The translations under genes were made by a program, and so were the position numbers. The notes under the pieces are model-generated. The model saw only the letters and a list, made by a program, of their open reading frames with translations. It had not been told where the DNA came from and did no database searches. A stretch of 64,000 nucleotides of DNA, from positions 33,675 through 97,674 of the forward strand of contig JBAZLV010000004.1 of the NCBI GenBank assembly GCA_041650055.1, given 5' to 3'. This document shows, piece by piece, positions 9,601 to 40,859 of the stretch. Origin of the DNA: Nitrospirota bacterium. Lineage in GTDB: Bacteria; Nitrospirota; UBA9217. Within the stretch, counting starts at the first letter, position 1; each line of letters starts with the position of its first letter.

Positions 9601-10983
9601 TCACTTCACAACAAAATCAAGACGCATTTCTTTTCCGGAATGTACATCTACCGTGCCAGAAGAAACTTCTCTGTCATTCCGAAGAACTGATACTTTGTAG
9701 GACCCCGGCGCAAGACCTTCGATCCTGTAGGAACCCTTGTCAATCGAGATACCGTAGCTTACCGTGCCTTCCCGGTAGAATACATCTCCATCATCAACCG
9801 GTTTGCCCGATGCATCGCGAACGTTTCCGAAAATGACCCCGCCCGGATTGAGCGCTGTATCAAATCGGTAAGTCCGGCCTTTTTCGATCTGAATTTCTCG
9901 TGATGATTTTGAGAACCCTTTGCCTTTCAGTTCAATACGGTGTTTCCCTGAATCGGAGACGGCAACCGAATACGTTCCATTTGCAAAAGAGTTGGGAGTT
10001 CCTTTGCCGTCTTTCCATACGACAACGGTTCCCTCGGGTACAAAATTCCCCGAAGTGTCTGTTACCTTTCCAGTAACAATAGCCGCGTATTGCCGGTCAT
10101 CCATTCTCCGGCCAAGCCGTTTTATCTTTGGGACCGGGAGAATGTCTGCCATTCGCGTTTTATCTTTATTCTCTACAATGGTATAAAACGTCGCCTTGTC
10201 GACATCAAGATAACCGCCGGAATAATATCCAGGCATGGTTTCTCCGTCCACTCGCAGAATGATATGAAAAGGATCGACAAAATTATGTGAATGCTCGGCA
10301 TCGGAAAACGTCCAGCCCAAATCAGGATAATATACTTCAAGATACGCATGAAATCCGCCATCATTTACCTTCACTCCCCAATACTCTTTCGAAAAACCCC
10401 ACTCATATCCCGGAGGCAGATATCCGTGTGCAACGCGCGCGGGAATTCCTGCTGCACGGATGAGCGCCACCGCAAGATTTGAATATCCCACACAATATGC
10501 TTTTTTATACTTGAGAGCTGAAACAGCATCTGCAGGAACCGTCAGGCTTGCATCAAAGGTCAGGGTATCGGCAATCCAGGAGAGGATGGAATTCACTGCT
10601 TCATGTGCATATCCGCTGCCTCGTGTAATCTCGGATGCCAGCCGGACAATTGACGGATGCTGTGACTGTCGGTCTTTTTCCGGAGCAAGGTACTGTGCAA
10701 GAGAAGAAGAAATCGATGCAGATTGAATCGGAAATTGAACCCGTGTTTTCAAAGGTGACATGCGGGAAGTTACGGTTACCCGCTTGCTGAATTCATCGAG
10801 GATAACGACTTTCTGTTCAAACGATTCATTCGAGTAATTCGGAATAAATGCGACCCCGCGAGGATTTACAATGTCATAGACAACCGTGTGCTCTCCTTCA
10901 AGCACAATCAACCCGGCCTCTGTAGCAGGGACAAGGAGAAGGATCAATAAAACGGTGAGCAATGATATGCGTAGAGGGTTCAT
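9601..10983 (-). CDS. Secreted transglutaminase-like cysteine protease-fold protein with C-terminal beta-sandwich (CarboxypepD_reg-like) repeats.
   Basis: Signal peptide 'LLTVLLILLLVPATEA'. Transglutaminase core 'KKAYCVGYSNLAVALIRAAGIPARVAHGY' (Cys nucleophile) with downstream His/Asp. C-terminal 'GTVVVWKDGKGT...SGKHRIELKG' repeats. Confidence 0.7.
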   Translation of the reverse strand: MNPLRISLLTVLLILLLVPATEAGLIVLEGEHTVVYDIVNPRGVAFIPNYSNESFEQKVVILDEFSKRVTVTSRMSPLKTRVQFPIQSASISSSLAQYLAPEKDRQSQHPSIVRLASEITRGSGYAHEAVNSILSWIADTLTFDASLTVPADAVSALKYKKAYCVGYSNLAVALIRAAGIPARVAHGYLPPGYEWGFSKEYWGVKVNDGGFHAYLEVYYPDLGWTFSDAEHSHNFVDPFHIILRVDGETMPGYYSGGYLDVDKATFYTIVENKDKTRMADILPVPKIKRLGRRMDDRQYAAIVTGKVTDTSGNFVPEGTVVVWKDGKGTPNSFANGTYSVAVSDSGKHRIELKGKGFSKSSREIQIEKGRTYRFDTALNPGGVIFGNVRDASGKPVDDGDVFYREGTVSYGISIDKGSYRIEGLAPGSYKVSVLRNDREVSSGTVDVHSGKEMRLDFVVK

Positions 10984-26342: not shown

Positions 26343-28724
26343 TTAATCCATAGTAAGAGCGGTTTTTGCATGTTGCAAAGGCATAAACATCGCCTCCTGA
26401 TTTCCCGACTTGCCGTATATCCTCCGGTATTCACCGTAATTCCTGAGTATTTTTTTCACATAGCCGCGTGTTTCAGAAAAAGGAATAGATTCCACAAACA
26501 CATCCCAATCCGTAATCGGTTCGTTTTTCTTGATCCATCCGGCAACTGCCTCAGGTCCCGCATTGTATGCAGCAGCTGCAAAAAAAACATTACCATTGAA
26601 CCGTTTCAAAAGCGAGCTCATATACCACGATCCGATATTAATTCCTACATCAGGGTCGAACAGCTTGCCTCTATCAAAACTCTTGAGGTTGATGGTTTTC
26701 GCAACCTGAACACCGGTCGATGGCATGACCTGCATGATCCCCCGTGCTCCTGCAGGAGAAAGCGCAGCTGCATTAAACTGGCTTTCCTCCCGAATAATGG
26801 CTGCAATGAAATAGGGGTCCAGGTGGTACTGTCTGGAATAGGAGGCAATGGAATCCCAATATGCCTGGGGATAGGCAAGATACCAGAGATCATCGGGCAC
26901 ATTTTTTCTTGGAGCCTCAAGATACCGGTCATAATGTCGGAGAACTAACACATGGGAACGGTAATAATCCCCCAGCTCAAAAAAGGCTTTGCTCAATCCG
27001 ATGAGCATTCCTCGTTTTCCCTGAAGTTTTCCCTGAAGCAGGGCAAGCTCGGACGCAGCTTCTTTTTTCATGTTAAGATGCATAAGCTCAAGAATTTTTT
27101 TAAACAACGGCTCTTCGGTCAATAATTTTCTGGTTTCTTCGGTCCAGGCAGGGGGGATATCGTCCGTTTGATAAGAATACAAAGGATCATCAGGACAGCT
27201 GCTGTCAACACACAATGCCGGCTCCAGAACCTCTTTTACTGAAACCGTTTTACTTTGTACTGTCTGAAGAGCAGCAATACGCTCCTGTGCCCGATATCCG
27301 TAATAGGTATAAGTCCCTCGTTTCAATACATGCTGATAGTATGCTCGTGCACCAGAAACATTTCCCTGCTTTTCAGCTATTTTCCCCTGCCAGTAACGTG
27401 CCTGATTAACCAGAAAGGAATGAGGATAGGAGGCAACCAGTTCTTGCAGTATCCGCTCGGCTTTTTTATAATCTTCTATTGCATAATATCTCCAAGCTTG
27501 CCACCATAACGCGCTGTCGGCAAACCTGCTTTCCGGATACTCTTGTGCGAGCCGGTTATAGGCAGCCAGCGATTCGTTCCATTCTCCCGTTTCCCGGTAA
27601 ATATTCCCAGTCAAAAAAAGCGCGTCATCAGCCCATTCACTGTCAGGATAGTTTTCAAGAAGTTCGGAAAAGCGTTCGATTCCCGCTGTCCATTCTCCTC
27701 GTTTACTATATGATCTCCCGATCCAATATAATGCTTCTGGAACTCGTGGATCGGAAGGGTTTCTTCGAATCATCGACTCGAGAAGTGAGGCGGCTTCTTT
27801 CCTTTTTCCGATATGAAACGAAGCAATACCCGTACGGAAAAGAACCTCATTTCGGAAAGAAAATCCGGGATCACGATCAAGAAGCTGGTTTAATGTTTCA
27901 ATGGCTTTCCCATATTGCTGTAAGCGATAAAGAGTCTTCCCCCGTTCAAACAGCTCTTCAGAACTGGCTTCCGGAATTTTCCACCCCTCGGCTTGAAATC
28001 GGGCGAGTTCCTGGTCAACCTCCTGATCAACGCCATTTCCCGGATATGCGGTCCACACGTGTCGATATACTTCTACTGCCTCGGGAATTCTCTCTTGCTG
28101 TATCAGGCATCGTGCGAAGCGTAAGCCGGCCTCGGGAGCTAAATCGGAACGAGGGTGATCATGCAGAAACTTTTTGAAAATCGTTCCCGATTCTTCATAC
28201 TTACTCATTTCAAAAAGCGCCTTCCCTCTCTGAAATGCCGCAGGGGTTACCAGAGAACTTTTGGGATAATCATGAATGAGCTGGCGGTACCCTGCTTCTG
28301 CATCCGCATACCGCTGATTTGAAAACTGATAGTCAGCGAACAGAAACATCGCATAGTCTGCAAGCAGCCGATATTCACTCGTGACCTGAAGCATGGCAGC
28401 CTTTGCTTCTTCTTGCATGTCCATCTTGATCCGGACTTTTTCAGTCAGAAACAATGCCCGCCGGGCCCAAGGCGTATCCGGATATTCATGCATGATCTGC
28501 GACAGGAAAGGAAGAGCCTCTGCCGGATGATTTGATTCATAGGCGTCGATCGCACTCTTGAGCAAATAGGAGGGAGAGGACGAAGAACTGTTTTTTTCAG
28601 TAAATGATGATAAAAATGGCGTCAAAGAATCTGAAGATTTTTTAAGAGCGGTAGTATGCTCTTCTCCGCAGGACCATGCGAGAAAAAGAGCACAGAAGAA
28701 TATCAACAGTTGCATGATTCGCAT
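26343..28724 (-). CDS. Soluble lytic murein transglycosylase (N-terminal TPR/superhelical domain plus C-terminal SLT domain).
   Basis: C-terminal 'AAIIREESQFNAAALSPAGARGIMQVMPSTG' (SLT catalytic-Glu motif). Signal peptide from MRIMQLLIFF. Confidence 0.8.
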   Translation of the reverse strand: MRIMQLLIFFCALFLAWSCGEEHTTALKKSSDSLTPFLSSFTEKNSSSSSPSYLLKSAIDAYESNHPAEALPFLSQIMHEYPDTPWARRALFLTEKVRIKMDMQEEAKAAMLQVTSEYRLLADYAMFLFADYQFSNQRYADAEAGYRQLIHDYPKSSLVTPAAFQRGKALFEMSKYEESGTIFKKFLHDHPRSDLAPEAGLRFARCLIQQERIPEAVEVYRHVWTAYPGNGVDQEVDQELARFQAEGWKIPEASSEELFERGKTLYRLQQYGKAIETLNQLLDRDPGFSFRNEVLFRTGIASFHIGKRKEAASLLESMIRRNPSDPRVPEALYWIGRSYSKRGEWTAGIERFSELLENYPDSEWADDALFLTGNIYRETGEWNESLAAYNRLAQEYPESRFADSALWWQAWRYYAIEDYKKAERILQELVASYPHSFLVNQARYWQGKIAEKQGNVSGARAYYQHVLKRGTYTYYGYRAQERIAALQTVQSKTVSVKEVLEPALCVDSSCPDDPLYSYQTDDIPPAWTEETRKLLTEEPLFKKILELMHLNMKKEAASELALLQGKLQGKRGMLIGLSKAFFELGDYYRSHVLVLRHYDRYLEAPRKNVPDDLWYLAYPQAYWDSIASYSRQYHLDPYFIAAIIREESQFNAAALSPAGARGIMQVMPSTGVQVAKTINLKSFDRGKLFDPDVGINIGSWYMSSLLKRFNGNVFFAAAAYNAGPEAVAGWIKKNEPITDWDVFVESIPFSETRGYVKKILRNYGEYRRIYGKSGNQEAMFMPLQHAKTALTMD

Positions 28725-38362: not shown

Positions 38363-38389
38363 GATTGTCAGGGTATGATTGTCAGGGTA
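38363..38389. repeat. Perfect 13-bp tandem direct repeat GATTGTCAGGGTA x2 (1-nt spacer) in a divergent promoter region.
   Basis: Read directly from the sequence. Overlaps the palindrome caatcAgattg. Candidate operator. Confidence 0.5.
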
Positions 38390-38530
38390 ATGTGGACTTT
38401 TTAGCTTGCATTTTCTCTTTATTTTGTTAAAATTTTTACAGATTTATTTTCTGCGCATCTATTCTTATACTCATGAACAAAATCATCCGGATTTTCGACA
38501 CATGTCTAATCGAGAGAGAGGAGACAAGTC

Positions 38531-39046
38531 ATGACCAGAAAGGTCAAAGCGAAAAAGAAACAAACCAAAAAAACAGCAGTCCGCACGGGAGCGAAGAAAC
38601 CTCCTAGAAAACCCGTAAAAAAGAAAGCCCTCAAAAAAACAACAAAAAAGAAACCTGCTAAAAAAGCGGCTAAAAAAGTCACTCGTAAAAAAACCGTAAC
38701 CCGGCCAGCCGAAAAAAAAACAGCTGCACCAAAATCTATCGCCGTTAAATCCGCTCTAGCCGCAGCCACCCACCAACCGGCTGAACCAGGGAGCCAGGAA
38801 GAGGCTGTTGGTACGGTAACGCATTATTACAGCCATTTGCAGGTCGCAGTAATCCAGCTGAACAAGGGCATGATCAGGGTTGGAGATACGATTCATATCA
38901 AAGGAACAACCTCGGATAGCACACAAATTGTGGAATCCATGGAATATGAGCATCAACCCCTCACGGAAGCGGTCGCCGGTCAAAGCGTCGGTCTTCGCGT
39001 GAAAGATATCGTGCGTGAACATGATATCGTCTATATTGTAAAGTAA
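38531..39046 (+). CDS. Histone H1-like lysine-rich DNA-binding protein with a C-terminal EF-Tu-domain-2-like beta-barrel.
   Basis: The N-terminal 85 aa are more than 40% K/A/P/T ('KKKPAKKAAKKVTRKK'). C-terminal 'GTVTHYYSHLQVAVIQLNKGMIRVGDTIHIKG...QSVGLRVKD' resembles the translation-factor beta-barrel. GAGAGGAGA RBS. Confidence 0.5.
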   Translation: MTRKVKAKKKQTKKTAVRTGAKKPPRKPVKKKALKKTTKKKPAKKAAKKVTRKKTVTRPAEKKTAAPKSIAVKSALAAATHQPAEPGSQEEAVGTVTHYYSHLQVAVIQLNKGMIRVGDTIHIKGTTSDSTQIVESMEYEHQPLTEAVAGQSVGLRVKDIVREHDIVYIVK

Positions 39047-39071
39047 GCGTCCCACTGTAGGAGAAAACAGT

Positions 39072-39103
39072 AACAGGCGCGGGCATACACTGCGCCTGTT
39101 TTC
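39072..39103 (+). terminator. Rho-independent terminator.
   Basis: ACAGGCGC-gggcatacact-GCGCCTGT followed by TTTT. Confidence 0.6.
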
Positions 39104-39158
39104 ATGTGAGCGCTTAAGCGATTTTCCTATCAGGTCAGGACCCTCATTCCAATTCATT

Positions 39159-40859
39159 TTGTGGTACATTTGGAATCAATACACGTCGTCAAGGAGCACT
39201 CGTATACCTCTCATTCACGGAAATACAACCGGTTTAAAACCTGCACAGATTAAAACGATTGAACGATTGTATCGCAGAAAAATGCCGCCTGAAATGCTCA
39301 TATCTCCTGAGGCTGCCCGGCTGCTGGCCGAAGCATCGGCTGCAATCGGGAGACAGATTGGGCTTCTGATTGACCGTTCCGGTTCAGTAAGAAATGTGCT
39401 GATAGGAACAAACAAGGACATTCTTATTCCCGAGCTTTCAGAATATCGGCTCGGCACACGCCGGCTTCGGGGTATCAGGTTCATTCATACGCATCTGAAA
39501 GATCAGCCGCTCAACCAGGAGGATATTACGGATCTTGCGCTCCTCCGGCTGGATATGATCGCCGCGCTGACCATTACAAAAGACGGCCTGCCCAAAACAA
39601 TTTCCGTTGCGTATCTTCTTCCTCCAAACCCTAAAAACGAGTTGTATGAAGTGCTTGCTCCACAGCCGGTTTCACGGCTCAATCTCAAGGTAGATGAATT
39701 CATAGCAGATATTGAGCGCCAGATGGAACGAGCCCGGGCTGCCAGGGAGGTTGCAGGAAAAGACCGGGCAATTCTGGTAAGAGTTTCTAAAAAAAGCAGG
39801 CAGGAACAGGAAGAATCGATTGAAGAGTTAAAGGAACTCGCACGTTCAGATGCCGTCACCGTGCTGGATACGGTTGTTCAGCGTCTTCATGATCTCAATC
39901 CAAAATATCTCATGGGAGAAGGCAAACTCAAGGAATTGATTATCCGTTCGCAACAAGTGGGCGCGGATTTGATCGTTTTTAACCAGGATCTGACCCCTGC
40001 CCAGGTAAAGGCCATCGGTGATATCACTGAAATGCGCGTCATCGACCGCACCCAGCTTATCCTTGATATTTTCGCGCGCCGGGCGCACAGCGCAGACGGA
40101 AAGGTACAGGTCGAGCTTGCGCAACTCCGATATCGGCTCCCCAGGCTCTCAGAACGTTCAACAGCCCTTTCCCGCCTCACGGGCGGAATTGGCGGAAGAG
40201 GTCCCGGAGAAACGCGGCTCGAGATAGACATGCGGCGGGCACGTGATCGGATCAGGAGACTTGAAAAACAGCTTGATGCGCTCGGAAAAGCGCGGGAACA
40301 GCGGCGCGAAAAACGCGTACACAGCGCCATTCCAATTGTCTCGATTGCCGGATATACCAACGCTGGCAAATCCACTCTGTTTAATGCACTCACGAAATCC
40401 GAAGTCACGGCAGAAAATCTTCTTTTTGCCACGCTCGATACCGCAACCCGAAGACTTCGATTCCCCCGCGACCGTGAAGTGGTTATTACGGACACCGTTG
40501 GATTTATTCAGGAACTTCCGAAAGAGCTCCTGGGAGCGTTTCGTGCAACGCTCGATGAAATGCAGGATGCAACCATTATTTTGCATGTGGTTGATATGAG
40601 CACTCCGCGATTCGAGCAACAAATGACGTCAGTTGACCAACTATTGACCGAAATCGGTCTTGATCATATTCCCCGTATTCTCGTATTCAACAAAATTGAC
40701 CTGGTAAATCCGTCGTGGGCGAAAGTAATTGCAGCCCGGTACAGGGGCGTCCTGTGCAGCGCTGTTCATCCGCATACATTCAGACCGCTCCTGCAGGAAA
40801 TTGAAAAAAGTATATGGCCGGAAAACAGGCAACCCAGGCCGGAGCATGCGAAAAAATGA
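39159..40859 (+). CDS. hflX: GTPase HflX (long form with an N-terminal extension; start uncertain, the ORF begins with TTG).
   Basis: G1 'IAGYTNAGKSTLFNALT', G3 'DTVGF', G4 'NKID'. The upstream HflX N-domain begins near 'KDRAILV'. Confidence 0.8.
   Translation: MWYIWNQYTSSRSTRIPLIHGNTTGLKPAQIKTIERLYRRKMPPEMLISPEAARLLAEASAAIGRQIGLLIDRSGSVRNVLIGTNKDILIPELSEYRLGTRRLRGIRFIHTHLKDQPLNQEDITDLALLRLDMIAALTITKDGLPKTISVAYLLPPNPKNELYEVLAPQPVSRLNLKVDEFIADIERQMERARAAREVAGKDRAILVRVSKKSRQEQEESIEELKELARSDAVTVLDTVVQRLHDLNPKYLMGEGKLKELIIRSQQVGADLIVFNQDLTPAQVKAIGDITEMRVIDRTQLILDIFARRAHSADGKVQVELAQLRYRLPRLSERSTALSRLTGGIGGRGPGETRLEIDMRRARDRIRRLEKQLDALGKAREQRREKRVHSAIPIVSIAGYTNAGKSTLFNALTKSEVTAENLLFATLDTATRRLRFPRDREVVITDTVGFIQELPKELLGAFRATLDEMQDATIILHVVDMSTPRFEQQMTSVDQLLTEIGLDHIPRILVFNKIDLVNPSWAKVIAARYRGVLCSAVHPHTFRPLLQEIEKSIWPENRQPRPEHAKK

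Follow-up and report, generated by a model that had tools for sequence, protein, structure and literature searches.

What kind of protein is made when a lysine-rich tract of histone H1-like appearance is joined to a small domain of the translation-factor type, and what would such a protein bind? The question is raised by a gene in the 64,000-nt stretch of Nitrospirota DNA analysed here (hereafter, the window), for which a first-pass annotation had proposed a fusion of a Lys-rich tract with an EF-Tu domain-2-like beta-barrel. The coding sequence (38531..39046, + strand) starts with an ATG and codes for a 171-aa protein of 18.7 kDa with a pI of 10.4, and the peptides quoted in that annotation were found in its translation. 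A Shine-Dalgarno sequence, GGAG (38520-38523, + strand), lies 7 nt 5' of the ATG. Further upstream, a candidate promoter composed of TTGCAT, a 16-nt spacer and an extended -10-like TGtTAAAAT (38406..38433, + strand) was read by eye, with low confidence; the scan with the sigma-70 consensus retrieved no promoter on the + strand, the TTGCAT -35 element agreeing at just three of six positions. Rfam and tRNA scans of the 64-kb window gave no match.

Two alternative readings of the coding region were discarded. An antisense ORF (38506..38769, - strand), encoding 87 aa rich in Phe, is an artefact of AAA/AAG-rich Lys codons read backwards. A mis-called start, preceded by a Lys tract that is not translated, is excluded by the conserved N-terminus MPKKxKxKKK together with the reading frame, since more than 200 relatives, with tails of varying length, begin with MPKK and keep the frame open. 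An identical protein is already present in NCBI, from a Nitrospirota metagenome-assembled genome (MAG), under the name "EF-Tu/IF-2/RF-3 family GTPase". Literature searches on the fusion, on proteins made of a single GTP_EFTU_D2 domain, on the C-terminal domain of U32 proteins and on an hflX link in Nitrospira (see below) retrieved no description of the family, and the names of the public clusters are uninformative; the protein sequence is public, yet mis-named.

The N-terminal part of the protein (residues 1-72; 38531..38746, + strand) is a polycationic tail containing 27 Lys, 5 Arg and a single Glu (net charge +31, pI 12), with a composition of 38% Lys, 15% Ala, 14% Thr and 8% Pro. It is followed by an Ala/Pro/Glu linker (residues 73-92; 38747..38806, + strand) of net charge -2, ending in a conserved E-E-A-x-G just before the barrel. 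In the full-length AlphaFold2 model, residues 1-89 have a pLDDT of about 50-57 and no secondary structure, whereas residues 90-171 reach about 95; the protein is thus a small barrel bearing a disordered polycationic tail. Charge and composition of the tail are conserved while sequence and length vary, the net charge ranging from +17 to +49 among the 120 closest homologues. A weak 27-nt (9-aa) periodicity in the tail-coding DNA (38594-38699; 3.9 copies, 69% match) hints at tail growth by internal duplication.

As to the proposed likeness to H1, Hc1 and AlgP, the comparison stands for composition and falls for homology. The tail is a Lys/Ala/Pro-rich cationic disordered tract as in H1-like proteins, and tracts of similar Lys/Ala/Pro/Thr-rich composition, length and charge occur in Chlamydia Hc1/Hc2, Pseudomonas AlgP, the Burkholderia family NF038053 and the tail of mycobacterial HupB; none of these proteins, however, carries the barrel described below. 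The HC2 model scored 12.8 bits (E 0.13) against a cut-off of 40, and the Burkholderia H1-like model NF038053 scored 14.3 bits against a cut-off of 80. No match to the family models of Linker_histone, Hc1 or the H1 globular (winged-helix) domain was obtained. The term "H1-like" would therefore be appropriate here in a compositional sense only.

Lys-rich tails bind DNA, RNA and polyphosphate equally well, a point against the RNA-directed reading given below. A scaffold of polyphosphate granules or of another polyanion, on the model of AlgP, appears very improbable. The Lys-rich H1-like tail would be of the polyphosphate-binding type shared with AlgP, a protein which, according to PMC9239181, spaces polyphosphate granules; against this, the window protein is not homologous to AlgP, ppk/ppx or granule genes were not found nearby, and the barrel would be left without explanation.

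The C-terminal part (residues 93-171; 38807..39043, + strand) is an all-beta barrel of the type found as domain II of translation factors and as the C-terminal domain of U32 proteins, with a net charge of -2 and a pI of 6.2. The Pfam model GTP_EFTU_D2 matched with 30.9 bits in the whole protein and 33.9 bits in the C-terminal fragment, by a small margin over the gathering cut-off of 30.3, and EF-Tu domain 2 was also matched among PDB sequences. Modelled with AlphaFold2 from an input of 28 homologues, the C-terminal 88 residues are all-beta with good confidence (pLDDT 92.1, pTM 0.80). Structure searches revealed strong similarity to solved structures; the barrel is closed and can be superposed on its domain II counterparts in EF-Tu, IF2 or SelB. 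The proposed two-part architecture is thus borne out, as is the fold suggested for its C-terminal region. The viral structure library returned giant-virus translation factors alone, the phage collection gave no match, and PADLOC did not recognise the window protein.

Homology also extends to the C-terminal barrel of the U32 family (Peptidase_U32_C; PDB 4HE5/4HE6, Geobacillus thermoleovorans). The single match in 72,556 plasmid records falls, at 31% identity and E 7e-4, within the last 70 residues of a "peptidase U32 family protein" from Parabacteroides, and the barrel-family profile aligned with that region at an hhalign probability of 98.8%; the best NCBIfam match of the Parabacteroides protein is the tRNA hydroxylase TrhP, under the cut-off. 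The Peptidase_U32_C HMM did not match the window protein, nor was a Peptidase_U32 catalytic domain found in it, so that the barrel is free-standing and not appended to such a domain. This kinship is reflected in the "putative protease" labels of JGI.

In the Nitrospirota clade, identity across the barrel is about 81% per column, the invariant residues including T97, H98, Y100, H102, E138, E140, H141, R162, H164 and D165. The family as a whole has the signature H-Y, G-H-T-x-D-x-x-Q, S-x-(Q/E)-x-E-H and R-x-x-D-x-V-Y, from which the window protein departs at two His (GTT for GHT, QP for QH); several of the barrel His are conserved in the Nitrospirota clade only. Since the polar positions of the signature are missing from the U32 domain, they mark a family-specific site. 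The clade-invariant E138 aligns with a Glu of EF-Tu (E259 in Escherichia coli, E271 in Thermus thermophilus) which, as cited in PMC9540759, contacts the 3' end of the tRNA. This position is Gln in most barrels that lack a tail (bare barrels), and the EF-Tu Arg (E. coli R288) has no counterpart; judged from the alignment, the tRNA-end residues of EF-Tu would be only half conserved. Bare barrels have a pI of 4.6-6.9, and a barrel that is neutral to acidic does not offer an obvious RNA-binding surface by itself.

The same fold is present in domain II of EF-Tu, IF2/eIF5B and SelB (GTP_EFTU_D2), and it is this match, together with the NCBI name of the identical protein, that would speak for a GTPase of the EF-Tu/IF-2/RF-3 family or for a degenerate remnant of such a protein. 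We give this explanation next to no credence. Neither GTP_EFTU nor any other P-loop model matched, residues 1-89 are disordered and Lys-rich, domain III is missing as well, and residues of the aminoacyl-tRNA pocket such as R288 are not kept. Lacking a G domain, the protein bears the GTPase name as a misnomer. An EF-Tu pseudogene or fragment was likewise rejected, the 160-190-aa architecture being kept in more than 1,000 homologues with a signature of their own.

The search of 5.8 billion proteins retrieved 1,114 homologues, the best 120 of which are 147-232 aa long and all carry an N-terminal tract in which Lys makes up 24-52% and acidic residues are few. The tract is also present in most of 80 genomic relatives, Proteobacteria included, with Arg partly replacing Lys. 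The fusion is therefore not an artefact, and orthologues uphold it. Nor is it uncommon within this family, contrary to what had been supposed. A profile search of 1.84 billion cluster representatives (clusters at 50% identity) gave 2,782 matches at E<=1e-3, of which 1,485 reached E<=1e-10; when tail classes were scored by the best-matching stretch on the 150 most similar clusters, 66 were basic-tailed, 32 were bare barrels of 85-92 aa and 52 were others, including about 12 tandem-barrel proteins. In a rough neighbour-joining tree built from the barrels, tailed members cluster without being monophyletic, with 15 inferred changes compared with about 35 for shuffled labels. The close family comes mostly from Nitrospirota MAGs (species-representative genomes), with further members in Manganitrophaceae, Burkholderiales, Sulfuricaulis/Acidiferrobacterales and Xanthobacteraceae, where Arg again takes the place of part of the Lys. 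At a scale of about 1,500 clusters at 50% identity, the family thus comprises bare, Lys/Arg-tailed, tandem, TIR-fused and receiver-GAF-fused forms.

The two last forms were observed in longer members. Proteins P0129, P0159 and P0139 combine TIR_2 with two barrels, PADLOC recognising the TIR part alone, and P0236 and P0255/P0280 carry the barrel at the C-terminus of Response_reg and GAF domains (locus L093:5001-6356). These sequences show the barrel to be a portable module. The receiver-GAF-barrel gene adjoins rpsB-tsf-pyrH-frr, an anecdotal observation.

A portable recognition domain is typically found in such settings, at the C-terminus of receiver-GAF proteins and as tandem copies in TIR proteins, and the protein may accordingly be pictured as an adaptor or sensor, in which the barrel binds a protein or a small ligand or metal through its His/Glu/Asp/Tyr cluster and the tail localises it to the nucleoid, the ribosome surface or a condensate. 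We regard this as unlikely. The invariant H98, Y100, H102, E138, E140, H141, R162, H164 and D165, not common to the U32 C-terminal domain, would suit a binding site of this kind, bare barrels are acidic, and the barrel of the archaeal protein Pbp11 binds its partner PAN without the tail (PMC9540759). On the other side, no partner or ligand can be named, no neighbour is conserved family-wide, several of the His are restricted to Nitrospirota, and two are missing from the window protein itself.

Pbp11 (Pyrococcus abyssi Q9UZY3; PDB 7ANU, 1XE1 and 4PGO) is also the closest likeness to the whole arrangement, consisting of a disordered N-terminal tail and a barrel of the same type. The two parts together bind tRNA, while the barrel binds the PAN ATPase independently of the tail (PMC9540759). 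The differences are considerable: the Pbp11 tail has about 20 residues, compared with a disordered N-terminal region of about 90 residues and a net charge of +31 in the window protein; Pbp11 is found in Thermococcales only, and its partner PAN, a proteasome ATPase, is without counterpart in bacteria; and its model NF041207 scored 15.6 bits (E 0.012) against a cut-off of 100, so that the window protein is not an orthologue.

On the basis of this analogy, the reading we favour, tentatively and with a probability of about 0.4, is that of a two-part nucleic-acid binder resembling Pbp11 and probably linked to translation. The product is a small, probably abundant binding protein, neither an enzyme nor a GTPase. 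The tail would provide a strong, non-specific electrostatic hold of high avidity on a nucleic-acid polyanion, while the near-neutral barrel, through its conserved His, Tyr, Glu, Arg and Asp residues, would make the specific contact. The preferred target would be RNA of the translation apparatus, either tRNA or the ribosome, given that the characterised relatives of the barrel all handle tRNA or the ribosome, that Pbp11 binds tRNA, and that the gene adjoins hflX. By kind, the protein is best classed with the free-standing barrels of translation-factor type, such as Pbp11, and with the basic-tailed nucleic-acid binders.

In the window, the gene is flanked on one side by a divergent LPS heptosyltransferase gene (- strand) and on the other by hflX (39159..40859, + strand), identified by TIGR03156 (436.9 bits against a cut-off of 216.75) and by the Pfam domains GTP-bdg_N, GTP-bdg_M and MMR_HSR1 from residue 218. 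Among the approximately 50 closer Nitrospirota loci with downstream sequence, hflX lies on the same strand 20-310 bp downstream in nearly all, L012 being the one clear exception. By ORF clustering, the two genes were found together in 47 of 54 loci; for most of the others a spurious antisense ORF had hidden one of the two, and tblastn still detected hflX in the majority of these loci. No other neighbour is as well conserved, the next best being present in just 26-27 of the 54 loci. The hflX-linked clade is shallow, with HflX proteins 60-89% identical to the window copy, and some 30 tailed relatives at a greater distance, Manganitrophaceae and proteobacterial ones among them, lack the link; the only recurrent neighbour there is a citrate-synthase-like gene.

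Some further features of these neighbourhoods were recorded. The HflX of the window is 566 aa long; the TIGR03156/Pfam match begins at about residue 203-218, leaving an N-terminal extension of about 200 aa (39159-39770) without Pfam match, and the HflX proteins of related loci (516-584 aa) have this extension too. The citrate-synthase-like gene stands in place of hflX, upstream and on the same strand, in eight distant loci from proteobacterial and other Nitrospirota genomes (L054-L087; e.g., L071:2421-3761), in five of them immediately upstream. Two adjacent genes for unusually long Hfq-domain proteins are found a few genes downstream of hflX on related Nitrospirota contigs, in L002:10369-11301 (168 and 135 aa) and L006:9040-9978 (177 and 131 aa). 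Loci L001 and L004, both from GCA_040961345.1 and placed on different contigs, hold two diverged copies of the array ANTAR response regulator-barrel gene-hflX, an arrangement suggestive of mixed strains in the bin or of a segmental duplication.

The barrel gene is separated from hflX by a terminator-like hairpin (39072..39100, + strand), which has a GC-rich stem of 11 bp, a loop of 7 nt and a short T-run, TTTTC, overlapping the stem at its 3' end and extending to 39103. Folding of the RNA from 39044 to 39115 gave -28.3 kcal/mol, with a z-score of -3.5. An equivalent hairpin followed by a T-run is present in 42 of 52 related loci among L001-L069 (e.g., L001:6553-6599 and L008:3590-3636), and it is position-specific and not a dispersed repeat. 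The stem core GCGCAG...CTGCGC recurs in 32 of these 42 loci, while the loops vary and the pairs on either side of the core show compensatory changes. Having its own Shine-Dalgarno sequence and a conserved hairpin before hflX, the barrel gene looks like a separate transcription unit. Since the hairpin stands directly before hflX, read-through of the terminator could couple expression of the two genes, which is possible, and in the hflX clade would tie the barrel protein to the ribosome-rescue GTPase HflX. The conservation of the stem sequence is unusual for a plain terminator, and the hairpin might instead be an attenuator or a protein-binding element that controls hflX.

A more specific form of the translation-linked proposal, which we consider quite unlikely, makes of the protein a free-standing mimic of domain II, docking on the shoulder of the 30S subunit, as domain II of EF-Tu, IF2 and EF-G does, or on the acceptor end of tRNA, with the tail clamping rRNA. 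In the Nitrospirota clade it might act with the long-form HflX, for instance by occupying or protecting the factor site of the subunits split by HflX, and would then be a new hibernation or anti-association factor.

The evidence from gene context does not all point towards translation: the hflX link is limited to a shallow clade, the hairpin intervenes between the two genes, and bare barrels have no consistent translation neighbours. At 80 metagenomic bare-barrel loci, SDR, aconitase, methylmalonyl-CoA mutase (MCM) and fmt/def genes were found as neighbours in a lineage-specific manner, with no family-wide partner. A separate, anecdotal observation on the side of translation concerns an 87-aa bare-barrel gene (L088:4210-4473, and also L089-L091) on an archaeal-looking contig, which is divergent from a DRG-type GTPase gene (MMR_HSR1, Xtn and TGS) and adjoins genes for ThrRS, ProRS and ribosomal protein S26e, a second instance of the barrel beside a ribosome-associated GTPase.

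The main rival to the RNA-directed reading is a nucleoid-associated protein, whose tail would both coat and compact chromosomal DNA, as in Hc1/Hc2, the HupB tail or DdbA, and whose barrel would be an oligomerisation or partner-recruiting module; we hold it to be doubtful, though worth serious consideration. The composition of the tail, which resembles the C-terminal domains of H1 and the bacterial H1-like proteins, and the weak matches to HC2 and the Burkholderia H1-like family agree with it, as do the stand-alone, well-terminated gene with a good Shine-Dalgarno sequence, expected of an abundant protein, and the neutral-to-acidic barrel, suited to protein contact. A precedent exists in Streptomyces DdbA, in which an H1-like domain is fused to a DksA-like domain (PMC3643593). 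Its design is the same, a basic H1-like tract with a small globular domain that stems from the machinery of gene expression and is functional in its own right, but the globular part is a DksA-like zinc finger/coiled coil rather than a beta-barrel, the lineage is another, and the two proteins are not homologous. What weighs against a role in the nucleoid is that homology to H1, Hc1, Hc2 and AlgP is absent, with scores far under the cut-offs, that all characterised relatives of the barrel belong to RNA and translation biology, and that the hflX adjacency would be left unexplained. Furthermore, we know of no nucleoid protein that uses this barrel.

Should the translation-linked reading hold, the protein would represent the first counterpart in bacteria of the archaeal tRNA binder Pbp11, a large unannotated family would gain a function, and the role of the C-terminal domain in U32 RNA hydroxylases would be hinted at. 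Should the nucleoid be the correct site of action, it would extend the recurring "H1-like tail" design of chromatin proteins in bacteria by a new globular partner. To our knowledge, the Nitrospirota are a phylum with almost no experimental cell biology. In either case the names "EF-Tu/IF-2/RF-3 family GTPase" and "putative protease" are misleading and need correcting.

The region upstream of the gene contains a short repeat, which the first-pass annotation had reported as a perfect 13-bp tandem repeat in the promoter region. Two exact copies of GATTGTCAGGGTA are indeed present (38363-38375 and 38377-38389), the only ones in the window, within the divergent intergenic region between the heptosyltransferase gene (- strand) and the barrel gene (+ strand); they are not strictly head-to-tail, as one base separates the 13-bp units and the period is 14 bp (TRF: 1.9 copies, 100% match). 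Markov-2 simulations of the window gave an expectation of 0.05 direct repeats of at least 13 bp at such spacing, so that the repeat exceeds chance. No comparable repeat was found upstream of the 80 relatives, where shared 8-mers are at chance level, and a regulatory role is thus unsupported. The repeat is most simply explained as a recent, lineage-specific slippage duplication. Two more small duplications were observed elsewhere in the window, one at 27014-27038 (12-bp period, 13-bp match, GTTTTCCCTGAAG) and one at 10118-10167 (the 12-mer CGTTTTATCTTT, 38 bp apart), bringing the small direct duplications to three in 64 kb, compared with 0.17 expected.
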